Virus genome (UHGV): UHGV-1366828
Origin: a virus
Length of the DNA stretch: 64,000 nucleotides
Reading direction: 5' to 3' (one strand)
Numbering within the stretch: position 1 is the stretch's first letter; each line of letters opens with the position of its first letter. The position numbers and the translations under genes were made by a program. Positions 47,137 to 57,442 of the stretch are shown here, in pieces. The notes below the pieces were generated by a model. It saw only the letters and a program-made list of their open reading frames with translations. It had not been told where the DNA came from and ran no database searches.

Positions 47137-48156
47137 TCAGGCCTTGATCTTACCCGCTACCAGGAGGCTAGGATTGAGAAGCTTCAGGTCGTACATCGTA
47201 CTCCAGCCTTGTGTGGTTCCACCATCGGCGAACTGAAGCAGCTGAGTAGGAACAACGCTCATGTAAGGAGCATAAACAGCGGCGGAGCTCATTAAATCGC
47301 TGCCGTTGACACCTACAATGAACTTACCAGCTTCAAGAGCAGGAGAAACGAACACCTTAAGAGAACCGAGAGTACCAGCGAAGTAAGGACCGTTAACATC
47401 GCTCACAGGAGCAGGAGTCCAGTCACGAATGAAAGCAAACACCGGAAGAAGGTCGCTGGCGCAAATCATGTAGTTAGGAACAAATTTCTTTGTACGGTCG
47501 TACACTACGCGCTTGGCATCTTCAACAGTTTCCATGAATCCCTGATAGTGCTCTGTTTTGGAAACACCTACATTAGGAGTCTTGCTCCATTCAAGGGTTG
47601 TGTCGGTCGGGGTATTGTCGATAAGAAGCTGAACAACTTCTGTGTCGATTTCATATTCGAGCTGACCAACAGCCTTCTCTGCAAGCTGGTCACCAAGGTC
47701 GAAACCGTAGTCGGTCTTAGCCTGGAAAGCAGCAATCTGAGAGTAGTAAACAGCGATACGACGAGCCTTCGCAACAAGAGCGATATTCTTCATCTCTGCC
47801 TTGAGCATCGGAAGGTCGTTCTGAGGAACAACTACGTTGTCGTAGTAATAAGCTACACGGTCAGTGGCAACAAGAGTTGTGGTAATTGTCTTGCCGTCAG
47901 CGCCAACATTCACATAAGTGGGATCACCAGTTGCGTGAGTAACCTTAACGTCGTACTTAACGCCGTCCTTCTCAAACGCGCCCTTAACAACAGGAGTCCA
48001 GGAAAGAGCAAGAGAAGCACCAGCCGTCGGAGTTTCAACAACACGGTCACCAGTGTAATCAGCATCGACATCGCCGAGAGCGAACGGGCTGTTCAGAAGC
48101 TTACCAGCAGTGGTCTGACCCTTGGTCTTACCAGCAGTATACTCAATGTAAGTTAT
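47137..48156 (-). CDS. major capsid protein (T4 gp23-like), exon 2 (339 codons)
   Basis: The frame stays open upstream of the annotated TTG back to a TAG at 48223-48225; no Shine-Dalgarno site; sequence continues exon 1 across the junction (...PMSSMSGF|ITYIEYTAGKTKG, compare T4 ...PMNSPTGQVFALRAVYGKDP); C-terminal ...AAVYAPYMSVVP resembles gp23 ...GIYYAPYVALTP. Confidence 0.7.
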   Translation of the reverse strand: MTYIEYTAGKTKGQTTAGKLLNSPFALGDVDADYTGDRVVETPTAGASLALSWTPVVKGAFEKDGVKYDVKVTHATGDPTYVNVGADGKTITTTLVATDRVAYYYDNVVVPQNDLPMLKAEMKNIALVAKARRIAVYYSQIAAFQAKTDYGFDLGDQLAEKAVGQLEYEIDTEVVQLLIDNTPTDTTLEWSKTPNVGVSKTEHYQGFMETVEDAKRVVYDRTKKFVPNYMICASDLLPVFAFIRDWTPAPVSDVNGPYFAGTLGSLKVFVSPALEAGKFIVGVNGSDLMSSAAVYAPYMSVVPTQLLQFADGGTTQGWSTMYDLKLLNPSLLVAGKIKA

Positions 48157-49151
48157 CAAATGTGTTACGAATAATTCATCTATCTTTATACTAATTTTTT
48201 GAAGGGATTTGTTAACCTTCCTCTAACATAACCTTCAGGAGGATCGCCAATAAACATATGCTCTTCTTTTCCGTTATTCCACCAACGAGAACCTTTATGT
48301 GCTTCTATACTTCTTTGTATAGAATATTCCGTGGGTTTCTGCCCTTTACTAGATTCTCTCATCTTGAGAATTGTTTCTTCTGAGCGTTTCTTACCAGTAT
48401 TCGCTTTAGCTCTTTTTAGTTTAGTTTCTTCAGATTGTTTTTTTCCTGTCCAGTAAGCTAACTTGTACCTTAATTCTGGAACAAGATTAACATTACCGTC
48501 TCCACCATCAGTTAGATTATACCCATTAGGATATCTACACTGTAGCGTTTCAATCCAGAAACTTTCTTTTTCGTTTAATTCTTCAAGAGTTTCAGCTGTA
48601 TCAATAAGCTCTCGCGAAAAATTTTCTAGCCCATAGAACTTAATGCTACTTTTAATATAAGTTCCGCTAGTAATGTAATTCTCATCAAGTTTTGGAAAAG
48701 AATATTTATGTTTACCAACATACACTTTATGTGTAATCAGGTTTGTTAGTTTATACACATAACCATACATATTTTAATCTCCTCTAAAGATAAAATATAT
48801 TAAAAAGTAGTAATTCAAATATTAGAGGTATTTGAAAAAGGGAGCTAACCTCTGTCCTACTTTATAACTAAGTTATAAAGATATCAAATTATTCTCTTTA
48901 TGTTACCATAAAGTTCAGACTATATCATCATCCTATATTGTTTTATCCTCTATAGGACGCCTCGCACTTGGACCTCATTTGAGGTCTACTCTACTCTTTT
49001 ACTCGCATAAGTTTTTCTCTTATGCTACAATTTCGATAGTCGTTGAGCCTTCTCTAATTATTAGAGCTTGGCTGCTGATTGTCCCGTCGGGATTTTCCAG
49101 CAATTCACGAGGTTTTTTACTATATATTACTATATAGGGATTCTAAACTTA
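48157..49151 (-). mobile_element. Group I intron (995 nt) carrying a GIY-YIG homing endonuclease ORF
   Basis: P1: exon GGAUUU pairs with intron GAAUCC (U.G at the splice site), and the intron starts with an in-frame UAA. Core elements P AAUUGCUGGAAA, Q AAUCAGCAGC, R GCUCAACGACUAUCG and S GAUAUAGUCUG are present. Intron ends ...CACAUUUG (omega-G). The HE ORF lies 3' of S. Confidence 0.7.
48186..48770 (-). CDS. GIY-YIG homing endonuclease with NUMOD3 DNA-binding repeats (194 aa), intron-encoded
   Basis: YGYVYKLTNLITHKVYVGKH (GIY...YIG), R..E...N.. core, tandem GKKQSEETKLK / GKKRSEETILK NUMOD3-like motifs; AGAGGAG site upstream. Confidence 0.75.
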   Translation of the reverse strand: MYGYVYKLTNLITHKVYVGKHKYSFPKLDENYITSGTYIKSSIKFYGLENFSRELIDTAETLEELNEKESFWIETLQCRYPNGYNLTDGGDGNVNLVPELRYKLAYWTGKKQSEETKLKRAKANTGKKRSEETILKMRESSKGQKPTEYSIQRSIEAHKGSRWWNNGKEEHMFIGDPPEGYVRGRLTNPFKKLV

Positions 49152-49439
49152 AAATCCAGACATAGAGCTCATCGGGTGGACAATTACTAGCTCATTAGCA
49201 ATTAAGTTAGGAAGAGCAACAGTTGTAAGGTTCAGGCAGAATTTCTTATAGAGTCCGAGATCTGAACGCTGTGTGCCAGAAGCAGCATCAAAAGCTTCAG
49301 AAAGGAACTTTGAAGTATTGTCAAGCACCTTAGCAATAACTAGCTTCTTGTGGTTATCCATCTTCTCGCCGTTGTGAGTTCTGCCGTAAACGGATTCAGA
49401 AACTGCAAGACGACCTTTGTATTGTTCTAAAAGATTCAT
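49152..49439 (-). CDS. major capsid protein (gp23-like), exon 1 (96 codons)
   Basis: KKLVIAKVLDNTSKFL ... LTTVALPNLIANELVIVHPMSSMSGF parallels the T4 gp23 N-terminus (KQAIIAKIFENQEKDF ... MVRRAIPNLIAFDICGVQPMNSPTG). Confidence 0.7.
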
Positions 49440-54803: not shown

Positions 54804-56312
54804 TTATAAAACAATACCATTTGCAAGATAGCTGGAATACAGTTCGCTTGCTTTCCCCATTCCAAAATCAAGAAATGTTGATTTATAGGGTTGTATTGAG
54901 TCTAATTTTTTAAGCTCTTCTTCAAAGTTTAATACAATTTGTGCTCGGTCCACTTCCGTTGTTGCTTGACTTACATCGATTGTTGTTTGTATCGTTTCTC
55001 CCCAGTCAAAAGAAAATTCTTCCGCATGTTGTGAAGCATTGTAGAGAGCTCCGCATACACCGTCTGCCGCGTCTTTTCTGCCCATGGGAGTGTGGTCAAT
55101 TTTTCCGTTTCCGTCTTTTTCAAGATCAAGAAGTTCCTCTACAAGTTCCGTTGTAGGATACATATCAAATCGTTCTTCGTAGATTGCATTCTTAAACGTC
55201 AGATATGGTAAACACACCTTCTGTTCTCTATCTACTCGGTCAACAGATATAATTGAAGTGTTAAAATGTTCTCCCTTTAACACTTGTAATAAATCATAGG
55301 ACTGGAAGGTATCTGCGGATACGCCTTTAATGTTAAATCCTTCTTGACGTAGCCAACGAATGAAGTTTCTGTTCTTTTCAAATGATACTTGACAACCTTT
55401 AGGAGCTTTTATACTTACATGAAATGCTAGAGTGTAATACAAATCTTTTGACGGGTCTTCTCCTGGCTTTGTTGGTTTCTTTCCGTTAATCCAAACTCCT
55501 CCGATACCTGTAGCGTCTCCTGACACTGACATATCAAGGTGTATGTACAACGGACGAGATTTTAGTTTTGGATCTATACGAGTTTTATCAATAAAGTCTG
55601 AATATTGTGTCTTGTCATCTGCCCCGTCTCCGACAGATATGATTTCTTTTGTAAATAGATTTTTGCGTTTTTCATTTCTGACAGCCGCAATTCTATTTCC
55701 TGCAAAATATTTAGTTGTTCCTGAAGTAGAGATGCCTGCAATATCTGTCAAAGCAATGTTGATATCATCTATAAAGTTCTCGTAATATCCCATAGGGACA
55801 TCTATGAGGGTGTATCCTCGGTCTCTATATGTTTGTAAATCTTCCTCGGTAGAATTCAGCGGAACTACTTCACTGTTAAGAAATTTATTACCTACAGCTA
55901 CTTTGAATTTTACTGCGCTGTCTTTATCAGTTCTTATCACCCACTGAGGCTCATCAACTATGTATGTTGTTTTACTGTCGTTATTCTTTTTTCCTTCAAT
56001 GAACGTTTCCATGTAAGACTGCTCAGTTCGTTTTGACGATGCAAGAATAAGCAATGTAGGATTGTGTTCTCCATGCATAAAACGAGATTGCATACGAGCA
56101 CTTGCTGTGTTAACAAGGTCTTTTGCTTTCTTTTTCTGCATTTCTACGTCTTGTGTTGGTACAAAAGAGACCTCGTCGCAGAAACAGTTGTGAGAAACTA
56201 CGTACGAGGAATTTGTTTTAACAAGAAAATTATTGTACGGATTAGCATTTATAACATCATAGAATTTTTTTGGTGTAGTTAAAGTAATTCGGGTTATACT
56301 TTTTATTTTCAT
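54804..56312 (-). CDS. terminase large subunit, C-terminal fragment: C-intein (42 aa) + C-extein (Walker B end + RNaseH-like nuclease domain)
   Basis: Probable start MKIKSITRITLTTPKKFYDVINANPYNNFLVKTNSSYVVSHN|CFCDE..., preceded by AGAGGA; the IntC resembles DnaE IntC (MIKIATRKYLGKQNVYDIGVERDHNFALKNGFIASN). Nuclease motifs LYIHLDMSVSGDATGIGGVWI and GVCGALYNA. The track's TTG 'MEDERKV' start is probably an artefact. Confidence 0.7.
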   Translation of the reverse strand: MKIKSITRITLTTPKKFYDVINANPYNNFLVKTNSSYVVSHNCFCDEVSFVPTQDVEMQKKKAKDLVNTASARMQSRFMHGEHNPTLLILASSKRTEQSYMETFIEGKKNNDSKTTYIVDEPQWVIRTDKDSAVKFKVAVGNKFLNSEVVPLNSTEEDLQTYRDRGYTLIDVPMGYYENFIDDINIALTDIAGISTSGTTKYFAGNRIAAVRNEKRKNLFTKEIISVGDGADDKTQYSDFIDKTRIDPKLKSRPLYIHLDMSVSGDATGIGGVWINGKKPTKPGEDPSKDLYYTLAFHVSIKAPKGCQVSFEKNRNFIRWLRQEGFNIKGVSADTFQSYDLLQVLKGEHFNTSIISVDRVDREQKVCLPYLTFKNAIYEERFDMYPTTELVEELLDLEKDGNGKIDHTPMGRKDAADGVCGALYNASQHAEEFSFDWGETIQTTIDVSQATTEVDRAQIVLNFEEELKKLDSIQPYKSTFLDFGMGKASELYSSYLANGIVL

Positions 56313-56503
56313 TGATCGTATATGTCCTCTCGTAATCCAACATACTTTTCTTTCATCTTCCAACTTAGATTATCAATAACATACTGAAATTTATTTTTTA
56401 TACAAGTACCGTATTCATTATAGAATAATTTATAATTAACAGCTTGTGATAAGGCACATTGTCTCCTAAGTTTGCAAGTCTCAAGCTCCCTGTTAAATAC
56501 TAT

Positions 56504-57442
56504 TTAATTAAATACAATATCTTCTAGTTCATCTTCCATTGTAAGGTCTTGCGCTTCTTTATACTCACCATTCTTAAGCATGAATCTATGATTCGGTGTA
56601 CAGTGTATAACAGTGCCGTCTTCTAGTTCTATTTCATACTCCTCTGTAAAAACACCTGTTTCTTTAACAGTACACTCTTCGCTTAACGTCAGTGTATGTT
56701 CATCCGATATAGTCGGAACACGAATAATTTTATTTTCTAAATCACGAATCTTGGCTTCCCCGTTTTCTGTCATGATCAGTGTATCGCCATCAAGACAAGA
56801 AAACACAGCTCTTCCGAGTATATGTCGAGGTAATGAACCATAAAGCAGGTCAATACCTTTTGGAGGAACCCAGACAATGTTTGTGCTACCTGACAAAGAA
56901 CCATTCTTCATAAACCAAGGAGAATTTTGTAACAGCTCTTGACATTTTTGCCAGCCTACACCAGCAGCTGCATCCATTGTTATGTTGATGAATGCAAAAG
57001 TAATTTTATCAATAGGCTGTAACCCATAGTGTAAGTAAGGGTCTTTAAGGCACATCATTCTATATAATTGATAAAGGATGCAAAGAACAGCCATGAAAGA
57101 TTTACCAATACCAATTGAACCAGTCAATGCAAGAGTATTATATGCTGTGTCAACATTTGTAGGAAAAATCTTTTTCAGTGTATCAACCCAGTATGGATAT
57201 ACAGTTTTCCTGCCTTCAGCATCTATAAGACTCTTTCCTAGATAGTATTCGTTGTAAAGAAATGTTTCTATATCCACAGGAATTTCTTCGTAGTCTTGAT
57301 ATACCAAATCTTGATAAACATCGGAAGACCCCGACTGTGAATACTGTTTTAGTATTTCAATGGCAACTTTCTTTTCATCCTCTGTTAGGTTGTTTAGTTC
57401 TTTCTGAATGTCTGAACTTATAAAACTTAAAGTGTCAGGCAC
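56504..57442 (-). CDS. terminase large subunit, N-terminal fragment: ATPase N-part (Walker A GSIGIGKS) + N-intein (97 aa), ends at a stop codon
   Basis: ...ILGRAVFS|CLDGDTLIMTENGEAKIRDL...LEDGTVIHCTPNHRFMLKNGEY...DIVFN*. Hint block A CLDGDTLI, block B TPNH, closely paralleling DnaE IntN (CLSYETEIL...LEDGSLIRATKDHKFMT). Confidence 0.7.
   Translation of the reverse strand: MPDTLSFISSDIQKELNNLTEDEKKVAIEILKQYSQSGSSDVYQDLVYQDYEEIPVDIETFLYNEYYLGKSLIDAEGRKTVYPYWVDTLKKIFPTNVDTAYNTLALTGSIGIGKSFMAVLCILYQLYRMMCLKDPYLHYGLQPIDKITFAFINITMDAAAGVGWQKCQELLQNSPWFMKNGSLSGSTNIVWVPPKGIDLLYGSLPRHILGRAVFSCLDGDTLIMTENGEAKIRDLENKIIRVPTISDEHTLTLSEECTVKETGVFTEEYEIELEDGTVIHCTPNHRFMLKNGEYKEAQDLTMEDELEDIVFN

Follow-up and report, generated by a model that had tools for sequence, protein, structure and literature searches.

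The virus genome UHGV-1366828, of which a stretch of 64,000 nucleotides (nt) was analysed (this whole stretch is referred to here as the window), carries between positions 54,804 and 57,442 two adjacent genes that, with high probability, represent the two parts of a single gene for the large terminase subunit (TerL), broken by a naturally split intein. Like all genes in this part of the window, they lie on the minus strand (table 1). The upstream gene encodes an N-extein with the Walker A motif followed by the N-terminal half of the intein (IntN) with blocks A and B, and the downstream gene encodes the C-terminal half (IntC) followed by the remainder of TerL. Both were found here just as an earlier note, made from the sequence alone, had listed them; the lengths given for IntN, IntC and the gap between the genes are exact, and the nuclease domain in the downstream open reading frame (ORF) is recognized by fold match. 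The two intein halves reside on separate ORFs in different frames, each with its own stop or start codon, and the same is true of four related contigs, L001 to L004. The N-fragment gene is identical on L002, L003 and L004, where it is called with PF27249.

Conceptual ligation of the exteins yields a TerL of 675 amino acids (aa) and 76.4 kDa, i.e. shorter than the product of about 710 aa that had been expected, with a predicted ligation-junction peptide AVFSCFCDEVSF... that spans AVFS-CFCDEVSFVPTQDVEMQK. For the 191-nt gap between the two genes, the earlier description was right about the length and the AGAGGA motif, but calling it non-coding was too simple, because this spacer is the remnant of an endonuclease gene.

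Table 1. Positions of the genes, intein parts and spacer elements of the split TerL locus in the window.
Feature	Position	Strand	Properties and basis
N-fragment gene (N-extein 215 aa + IntN 97 aa)	56504..57442	-	GTG start, 312 aa, 35.6 kDa; ORF and translation
N-extein, TerL residues 1-215, ending ...RHILGRAVFS	56798..57442	-	full-length alignment with intein-less 675-aa homologues
Walker A (P-loop) GSIGIGKS, residues 108-115	57098..57121	-	translation and conservation
First half of Walker B strand (AVFS)	56798..56809	-	strand 212-219 in structure model
IntN, 97 aa, CLDGDT...DIVFN	56507..56797	-	Cys1 in block A; HINT fold
Block B TPNH (T67, H70) of IntN	56588..56599	-	
TAA stop of N-fragment gene	56504..56506	-	
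Gap between the two genes, 191 nt	56313..56503	-	
5' part of gap, 86 nt: former 5' untranslated leader of a homing-endonuclease gene, ending just before its ribosome-binding site	56418..56503	-	
3' part of gap, 105 nt: final ~35 codons (...NEYGTCIKNKFQYVIDNLSWKMKEKYVGLREDIYDQ, then stop) of the deleted HNH homing-endonuclease gene	56313..56417	-	L003 DNA alignment, frame translation, tblastn
Shine-Dalgarno-like AGAGGA, 12 nt 5' of the C-fragment ATG	56325..56330	-	
C-fragment gene (IntC 42 aa + TerL C-extein 460 aa)	54804..56312	-	ATG at 56312; 502 aa, 56.9 kDa
IntC, 42 aa, MKIKSITRI...VVSHN	56187..56312	-	block F FYDVINANPYNNF (Asp116), block G VVSHN (His138-Asn139); HINT fold
C-extein, TerL residues 216-675	54807..56186	-	Cys+1, rest of ATPase, RNase H-like nuclease domain
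Cys+1 and Walker B acidic pair, CFCDE, at start of C-extein	56172..56186	-	

A large terminase interrupted in its Walker B strand

The insertion point of the intein can be read off from relatives that lack it. A search with the conceptually spliced TerL against 5.8 billion proteins returned 10 clusters of uninterrupted homologues, each exactly 675 aa long and 97–98% identical at 100% coverage, in which the join reads ...RHIIGRAVFS-V-FCDEVSF where the window has ...RHILGRAVFS, the intein and then C-FCDEVSF. These exact intein-less alleles place the intein between TerL residues 215 and 216, with the +1 residue being a cysteine in the window and a valine in the uninterrupted proteins; on the intein-less contig L006 the site reads ...GCTGTGTTCTCTGTGTTCTGTGAC.... 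At the nucleotide level, alleles with and without the intein differ at 11 positions in the 60-nt bin at the junction and at 0–9 (mostly 2–5) in the other 60-nt bins, a peak as expected around a homing site. Furthermore, the Walker A residues G108, I110, G111, G113, K114 and S115 as well as D219-E220 are invariant in 26 homologues, and residues 212–219 form a β-strand in an AlphaFold2 (AF2) model. Thus, the break made by the intein falls within the Walker B strand, and the catalytic acidic pair follows three residues later.

That the host protein is a large terminase is supported by its fold, its homology to annotated terminases and its position beside a T4-type portal gene. This assignment needed a structure model, since sequence searches of the PDB with TerL, either as a single sequence or as a 26-sequence profile, found no terminase. 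With the AF2 model of an intein-less homologue, the top three PDB matches were to HK97 TerL (E = 2.6e-14) and T4 gp17 (E = 1.6e-10), and the nuclease domain of the G20c terminase was matched with a target template-modelling (TM) score of 0.61–0.66 and a root-mean-square deviation (rmsd) of 3.3–3.8 Å. Pfam gave no terminase family match to the spliced TerL and, for the two raw ORFs, a single sub-threshold intein match with the rest being noise; the PHROG terminase matches were weak (E = 9.6e-5 and 2.8e-3). By tblastn, genes of cultured phages annotated as terminase large subunit were found with an E-value of 1e-58, and it was only by tblastn that these relatives came up, with megablast of the locus against GenBank phages producing no match. 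The gene for the Portal_T4 protein lies immediately downstream of the TerL gene and is followed by genes for a Peptidase_S77 prohead protease and a Gp23-type capsid protein. The 64 kb of the window contain no second terminase and no other intein or related endonuclease.

Fold, catalytic residues and selection of the intein

When fused, IntN and IntC are modelled by AF2 (with an input alignment that did not include the fused L001 row) as a HINT domain, with a predicted local distance difference test (pLDDT) value of 94.4 and a predicted TM score (pTM) of 0.87. A Foldseek search of the PDB with this model resulted in 65 matches at E ≤ 1e-3, and those listed were almost all inteins, together with a few bacterial intein-like (BIL) domains. 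By TM score, the best of these was Npu DnaE (4kl5; TM 0.84, rmsd 1.8 Å, 22% identity), and Ssp DnaB, NrdJ-1, gp41-1 and others followed at 18–24% identity, with a TM of 0.78 to 8ubs. In this comparison with known split inteins (DnaE, gp41-1 and NrdJ-1), both halves do align to Hint domains. At the sequence level, phmmer produced E-values of 0.0025–0.006 to NrdJ-1 and DnaE, with DnaE at about 0.005 and NrdJ-1 marginally better. Given these weak sequence matches and the 22% identity, the term ‘DnaE-like’ used in the earlier note is appropriate for the fold and the break point, but not for the family to which the intein belongs, and the nearly position-by-position correspondence to Npu and Ssp DnaE seen there is a structural likeness between distant sequences.

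The set of class-1 residues is complete (Cys1, T67-P-N-H70, Asp116, His138-Asn139 and Cys+1) and is kept across the family alignment, whose members are 54–71% identical, and also in the split inteins found at the same site in the phages SP-15 and vB_BceM-HSE3, which are 34–36% identical over their full length. A word-indexed search with the fused intein detected 16 database relatives (48–76% identical; E = 1e-43 to 1.7e-5). IntN and IntC carry net charges of −17 and +5, respectively, and this polarity of an acidic IntN and a basic IntC matches that of known fast-associating split inteins; for Npu, the values are −11 and +3. The break falls between the N-terminal motifs and block F, in the loop where endonucleases are inserted, and contiguous relatives bridge the same point with short linkers.

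Between the window and the divergent allele on L001, the ratio of non-synonymous to synonymous differences per site (pN/pS) amounts to 0.41 (IntN) and 0.34 (IntC), with saturated synonymous sites, which indicates that the intein has been under purifying selection. The exteins of the same two alleles are 98% identical at the protein level, with a dN/dS of about 0.04. Overall, the exact join, the HINT fold and the fold and context of TerL bear out the core of what had been proposed, i.e. a naturally split intein that sits in the Walker B strand and distributes TerL over two genes.

Recurrence of the split

Since metagenomic contigs can hold errors and contiguous mini-inteins of this family do occur at the very same site (P0121–P0123, P0138 and P0166), an obvious question is whether the split was produced by faulty assembly or sequencing and the true genome has a contiguous mini-intein or a full intein. 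The recurrence of the arrangement makes this extremely improbable. A total of 11 contigs encode the exact C-fragment protein. Over 13.5 kb, with the 191-nt gap included, L002 does not differ from the window (100% identity), and stop, gap and start recur there as well as, with the gene of an endonuclease lying between them, in L003 and L004, which come from different assemblies; an assembly error behind the stop or the gap is thereby contradicted. Allele L001, in which IntN and IntC are only 56% and 67% identical at the protein level, is broken at the same point and carries a different endonuclease of the same family (382 aa). Beyond these close relatives, at least 10 N-fragment clusters (ending a few residues past ...DEL) and at least nine C-fragment clusters (starting with MK(I/V)K...) with below 50% identity are split at this point, too. 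Moreover, IntC is not in the frame of IntN (191 mod 3 = 2), and the frame past the TAA leads into the tail of the endonuclease gene, where it ends at the IntC ATG. With this offset and the stop codon, a contiguous intein would require at least two independent errors, i.e. one creating the stop and another one shifting the frame, and a single base error would not suffice.

The spacer as remnant of a homing-endonuclease gene

The origin of the spacer becomes apparent from L003 and L004, whose flanks are about 98% identical to those of the window and whose IntN and IntC DNA is 100% identical. Here, the spacer has 1073 nt and contains a 326-aa ORF with a TGA that overlaps the IntC ATG. This ORF matches phrog_655 ‘homing endonuclease’ (E = 4.8e-29) and phrog_12434 ‘HNH endonuclease’ (E = 6.3e-10); a sequence search of the PDB with the L003 protein found nothing, and its Pfam matches to HNH and NUMOD3 are sub-threshold. 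The spacer of the window equals that of L003 minus 882 nt, with one single-nucleotide polymorphism (SNP) and 2 nt of microhomology at the deletion junction, which lies at 56417/56418. The 5' part of the gap corresponds to L003 4928..5013 apart from this one SNP, and tblastn of the L003 endonuclease against the window yields an E-value of 3e-19. The deletion removed the ribosome-binding site (RBS), the ATG and 294 of the 326 codons of the endonuclease gene; the frame of the remaining tail ends with ...EDIYDQ-stop on the IntC ATG, so that the ATGA stop/start overlap is kept in the window. A free-standing endonuclease gene between the intein halves is thus present in L003, L004 and L001, and reduced to a 191-nt remnant in the window. 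The collinearity of the gap with the leader and tail of the endonuclease gene identifies it as a gene remnant and not an intron, and the loss of a gene that siblings still have makes the window an endonuclease-lost derivative, similar to the published locus gp41-7.

It had been considered that the gap, with or without flanking intein codons, might be an RNA intron whose self-splicing yields one continuous ORF. Group I introns are frequent in structural and DNA-metabolism genes of phages, and this phage uses them, too, with one residing in its capsid gene (core at 48896..49161). To an intron in the gap, however, we give hardly any credence. Not a single Rfam family matched in the region 56000–56900 at E-values up to 10, and the TerL region stayed below the gathering threshold in a scan of the whole window, in which the capsid intron, as a positive control, was found with 106 bits. 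The gap folds no better than shuffled sequences (z-score +0.55; the endonuclease leader in the window, +0.75). In addition to being collinear with the endonuclease leader and tail, it is flanked on both sides by sequences that already encode complete and complementary intein halves.

Several further features of the spacer were observed. In L003 (5001..5023) and in L001 (4846..4878), the Shine–Dalgarno (SD) sequence of the endonuclease gene is located inside a small hairpin just 5' of the ATG. The two hairpins differ in sequence and their weak z-scores (−1.1 in L003 and −0.54 in L001) are only suggestive, but they resemble translation-attenuating hairpins reported for free-standing phage endonucleases; in the window, the deletion takes away the 3' arm. 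The endonuclease leader also contains a 20-nt block, AATGTGCCTTNNCACAAGCT (56441..56460 (-) in the window, where it occurs only once; 4971..4990 in L003 and about 4818..4838 in L001), which is kept between two intein/endonuclease alleles that are otherwise about 60% identical, and which could be a promoter or regulatory element travelling with the endonuclease.

The stop codon of IntN is flanked by imperfect 12-nt direct repeats, ATTGTATTTAAT TAA ATAGTATTTAAC (56492..56518 (-)), which read IVFN-stop-IVFN, and in L003 the frame past this stop is open over 32 codons through the endonuclease leader into the ORF, for which we estimate a chance of roughly 11%. Repeats and open frame hint that the split may have arisen from an in-frame fusion of intein and endonuclease; the feature is not kept in allele L001. 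Within the remnant, there is also a mini-ORF of 15 codons with an in-frame ATG (MKEKYVGLREDIYDQ, then stop; 56310..56356 (-)), whose stop overlaps the IntC start (ATGA). It does not have a convincing RBS, and a role in translational coupling is speculative. Finally, a T4-type late promoter was considered for TATAAATT in the gap and rejected, as TATAAATA occurs only five times on the coding strand and has no clear link to gene starts; a scan for sigma-70 promoters found nothing on the coding strand.

Related terminases and cultured phages

An exhaustive profile search, in which the profile included flanking extein columns, returned 6,356 proteins at E ≤ 1e-3. Among the best 150 clusters, approximately 29 are contiguous, at least 20 are of the N-fragment type and 13 of the C-fragment type, as an approximate count from coordinates. 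Besides contiguous mini-inteins at this site (P0125 and the clusters mentioned above) and split forms, the family includes IntN sequences that continue in frame into an HNH endonuclease (P0130 and P0133) or a GIY-YIG domain (P0132), as well as N-extein, IntN and HNH endonuclease encoded as a single ORF with a stop just before IntC (P0152 and P0174). In many C-fragments, the nuclease domain is interrupted by additional contiguous inteins, and in some relatives there is an intein in the P-loop.

Altogether, this terminase family is a hot spot for inteins, which are inserted at no fewer than four sites (with slashes marking the intein borders): the P-loop (TLALTG/C...HN/SIGIGKS), Walker B and two sites in the nuclease domain (GIN/C...HN/SKD and DAL/C...HN/CGA). 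Examples are P0046, P0067, P0094, P0095 and L009 1459..3078; HNH endonuclease domains are present in many of these inteins, and a single protein can have several inteins.

In GenBank, the best matches are to phage isolates. The same arrangement as in the window is found in two cultured Bacillus phages. In vB_BceM-HSE3 (MF418016), gp054 comprises the N-extein and IntN, gp055 is an unrelated 90-aa ORF, and gp056 consists of IntC and the C-extein; in SP-15 (KT624200), gp024 and gp026 carry the same split. GenBank lists gp054 as ‘intein splicing region protein’, gp056 and gp026 as ‘putative terminase large subunit’ and gp024 as ‘hypothetical protein’. Both phages share with the window the TerL family (35–37% identity), the insertion point (...DVF/C...HN/C.LDE), a homologous split intein and a spacer between the halves that holds an ORF. 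In contrast to the window, however, their spacer ORFs (90 and 230 aa) are unrelated and without an endonuclease signature, and the TerL of SP-15 is broken once more upstream and has an additional P-loop intein. A literature search found no paper describing the terminase splits of HSE3 or SP-15. As HSE3 and SP-15 are propagated phages, the split arrangement is compatible with productive packaging, which is the strongest, albeit indirect, argument that trans-splicing may work.

Breaks of the N-extein were seen as well. In SP-15, the terminase is distributed over three genes (L009 1459..7013), with a free-standing endonuclease annotated as ‘holliday junction resolvase’ breaking the N-extein at NITLD^QSYG with no intein involved. 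In Listeria phage LIS04 (L007, OQ999172, 1468..5142), an endonuclease gene is located four residues upstream of the intein site (HGLG^RDIF), and the remaining ‘RDIF + IntN’ is left without an obvious start codon. A group I intron as the cause of these breaks is not supported, since Rfam found none at the endonuclease genes that break the N-exteins of LIS04 and SP-15.

As to the capsid intron of the window, it interrupts a gp23-like major capsid gene (48154..49161 (-), with flanking ORFs at 49149..49439 and 47137..48159), belongs to RF00028 (E = 1.7e-26) and is followed by a GIY-YIG-type endonuclease ORF (48186..48770). This insertion of about 1 kb is absent in the intron-less L006; in L003, a group I intron (80.9 bits) occupies the same position.

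A proposed route from two genes to one terminase

How could a functional TerL be generated from this locus? In the ancestral state, an HNH homing-endonuclease gene would have separated the two halves, until the 882-nt deletion left the present spacer. Both genes would be transcribed as part of the late structural operon and translated separately, with the C-fragment being initiated independently from AGAGGA-N12-ATG, i.e. from a start and SD region that would once have overlapped the endonuclease stop. Driven by their opposite charges, IntN and IntC would associate electrostatically and fold into one HINT domain, in which Cys1 would form a thioester that is transferred to Cys+1. Cyclization of Asn139 would then free the intein halves, and an S-to-N shift would leave a peptide bond, so that the end product would be a TerL of 675 aa whose Walker B strand is intact. 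Unspliced, the ATPase core would have 139 aa inserted in its catalytic strand, and trans-splicing is therefore expected to be required for packaging. The element itself, now devoid of its endonuclease, should be unable to home and would be a stranded passenger.

That both halves are expressed and undergo trans-splicing is what we infer from this constellation. Taken as a whole, i.e. as the single TerL gene of a myovirus with a T4-like module, which is broken in two by a class-1 split intein with a deleted endonuclease and is restored at the protein level, this account appears very likely to us. Nevertheless, a number of points weigh against it. The endonuclease-less form was found only in sequences that are 100% identical to the window (L002 and one similar place), which may not represent sources independent of that of the window. 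The intein remains below the cut-off of 35.8 bits of Pfam PF14890 Intein_splicing, scoring 32.2 bits when fused, and the N-fragment by itself reaches 23.6 bits (for relatives of the intein, precomputed PF14890 matches exist). The TerL model has moderate confidence only (pLDDT 74.8, pTM 0.45). Finally, the C-fragment has lost any translational coupling to the endonuclease ORF, and its SD spacing (12–13 nt) is among the longer ones observed for neighbouring genes of the phage.

A rival reading is that the element is decaying and splicing has been lost, with TerL being either non-functional, as in a defective phage, or composed of two chains that are held together non-covalently by the intein halves. 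That a broken enzyme can work as two chains is exemplified by the split NrdA of phage Aeh1, which is intein-less. The endonuclease is already lost, which is a step to degeneration in the homing-cycle model, and breaks of TerL without an intein are tolerated in relatives (gp022/gp024 of SP-15 and gp51 of LIS04). However, the catalytic residues of the intein are intact and kept across divergent alleles under the low pN/pS ratios given above, and the exteins are under strong purifying selection. With the insertion being inside the Walker B strand, so close to D219-E220, a retained 139-aa domain should disable the ATPase. Furthermore, the allele is present on 11 contigs, and cultured, plaque-forming phages share the arrangement. 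We thus regard lost or dispensable splicing, the main remaining alternative, as very unlikely.

If trans-splicing does occur, head filling in this phage and in a broad range of relatives depends on a post-translational ligation inside the active-site strand of the packaging ATPase. It is conceivable, though unlikely, that a split intein is kept after loss of the endonuclease because it serves as a packaging checkpoint, with active TerL arising only when both late products have accumulated and the catalytic cysteines are reduced. In this case, ATPase and nuclease activities of the terminase would be tied to the timing of infection or the redox state of the infected cell, and the abundance of endonuclease-free split forms across divergent terminases, including those of the cultured Bacillus phages, would reflect selection rather than slow decay. 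With two cultured phages that have the same arrangement, this biology is directly testable. Also, the family is a source of canonical split inteins with Cys1 and Cys+1 whose charges are strongly complementary, and these could extend the orthogonal trans-splicing toolbox.

Comparison with known systems

Split inteins in terminases have already been published. ‘Fractured genes’, in which split intein halves surround a free-standing endonuclease gene whose 3' end overlaps the IntC start, were described for eight enzyme types including a gp17-like terminase (Dassa et al. 2009, PMC2677866). The locus in the window shares with these an essential phage enzyme gene that is broken at a conserved site, with adjacent halves on one strand, sibling alleles that keep an endonuclease gene with its stop over the IntC start and one allele that has lost the endonuclease. 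Also, its IntN of 97 aa and IntC of 42 aa fit the ranges of 88–105 aa and 33–54 aa, respectively, of the published fractured genes. The terminase intein in that study, by contrast, has an unusual break point with a 122-aa IntC (PMC2677866). The same holds for the split inteins GOS-TerL and AceL-TerL, which are atypical with an IntN of 25–37 aa and an IntC of 104–122 aa (PMC11766414, PMC2677866). These, too, are naturally split inteins from metagenomic large terminases of phages, and AceL-TerL also has Cys1 and Cys+1, but the published lengths set them apart from the canonical split in the window.

With Npu and Ssp DnaE, NrdJ-1 and gp41-1, the intein in the window has the HINT fold, the break point, the class-1 residues and the polarity of an acidic IntN and a basic IntC in common, whereas sequence identity is only 21–24% and the host proteins are different. 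Moreover, the halves of cyanobacterial DnaE are encoded at separate chromosomal loci, while those in the window are 191 nt apart in a phage operon. As judged from the description of the site, contiguous TerL1-e inteins interrupt the TerL ATPase of mycobacteriophage terminases likewise in the Walker B motif (Kelley et al. 2016, PMC5050341); these are not split, however, and their host terminases are of another family (Terminase_1). For DNA polymerase B of the Pseudomonas jumbo phage MIJ3, a split intein together with an HNH endonuclease has been reported (PMC6892783); this system, again by description, differs in its host gene and in having the endonuclease still present. Our literature search, outside of which most subscription journals lay, found no terminase intein that is canonically split, sits at Walker B and comes with an HNH endonuclease.

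The closest parallel is the locus gp41-7, a split intein that has lost its endonuclease and represents ‘step III’ of the stepwise gene-breaking model (PMC2677866). In contrast to gp41-7, the host protein in the window is TerL, interrupted at Walker B, rather than the gp41 helicase, the deletion can be mapped to the base by comparison with a sibling that has the identical intein, and half of the RBS-sequestering hairpin is deleted and not retained. With contiguous, fused, endonuclease-bearing and endonuclease-free forms side by side, the family provides an unusually complete natural series for the gene-breaking model of 2009, in which the last step is base-mapped between siblings with identical inteins. 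Thus, in the terms of Dassa et al. (2009), the locus is a fractured gene after loss of the endonuclease, i.e. a new example of a known arrangement, which leaves current concepts unchanged and extends them to a new host site.

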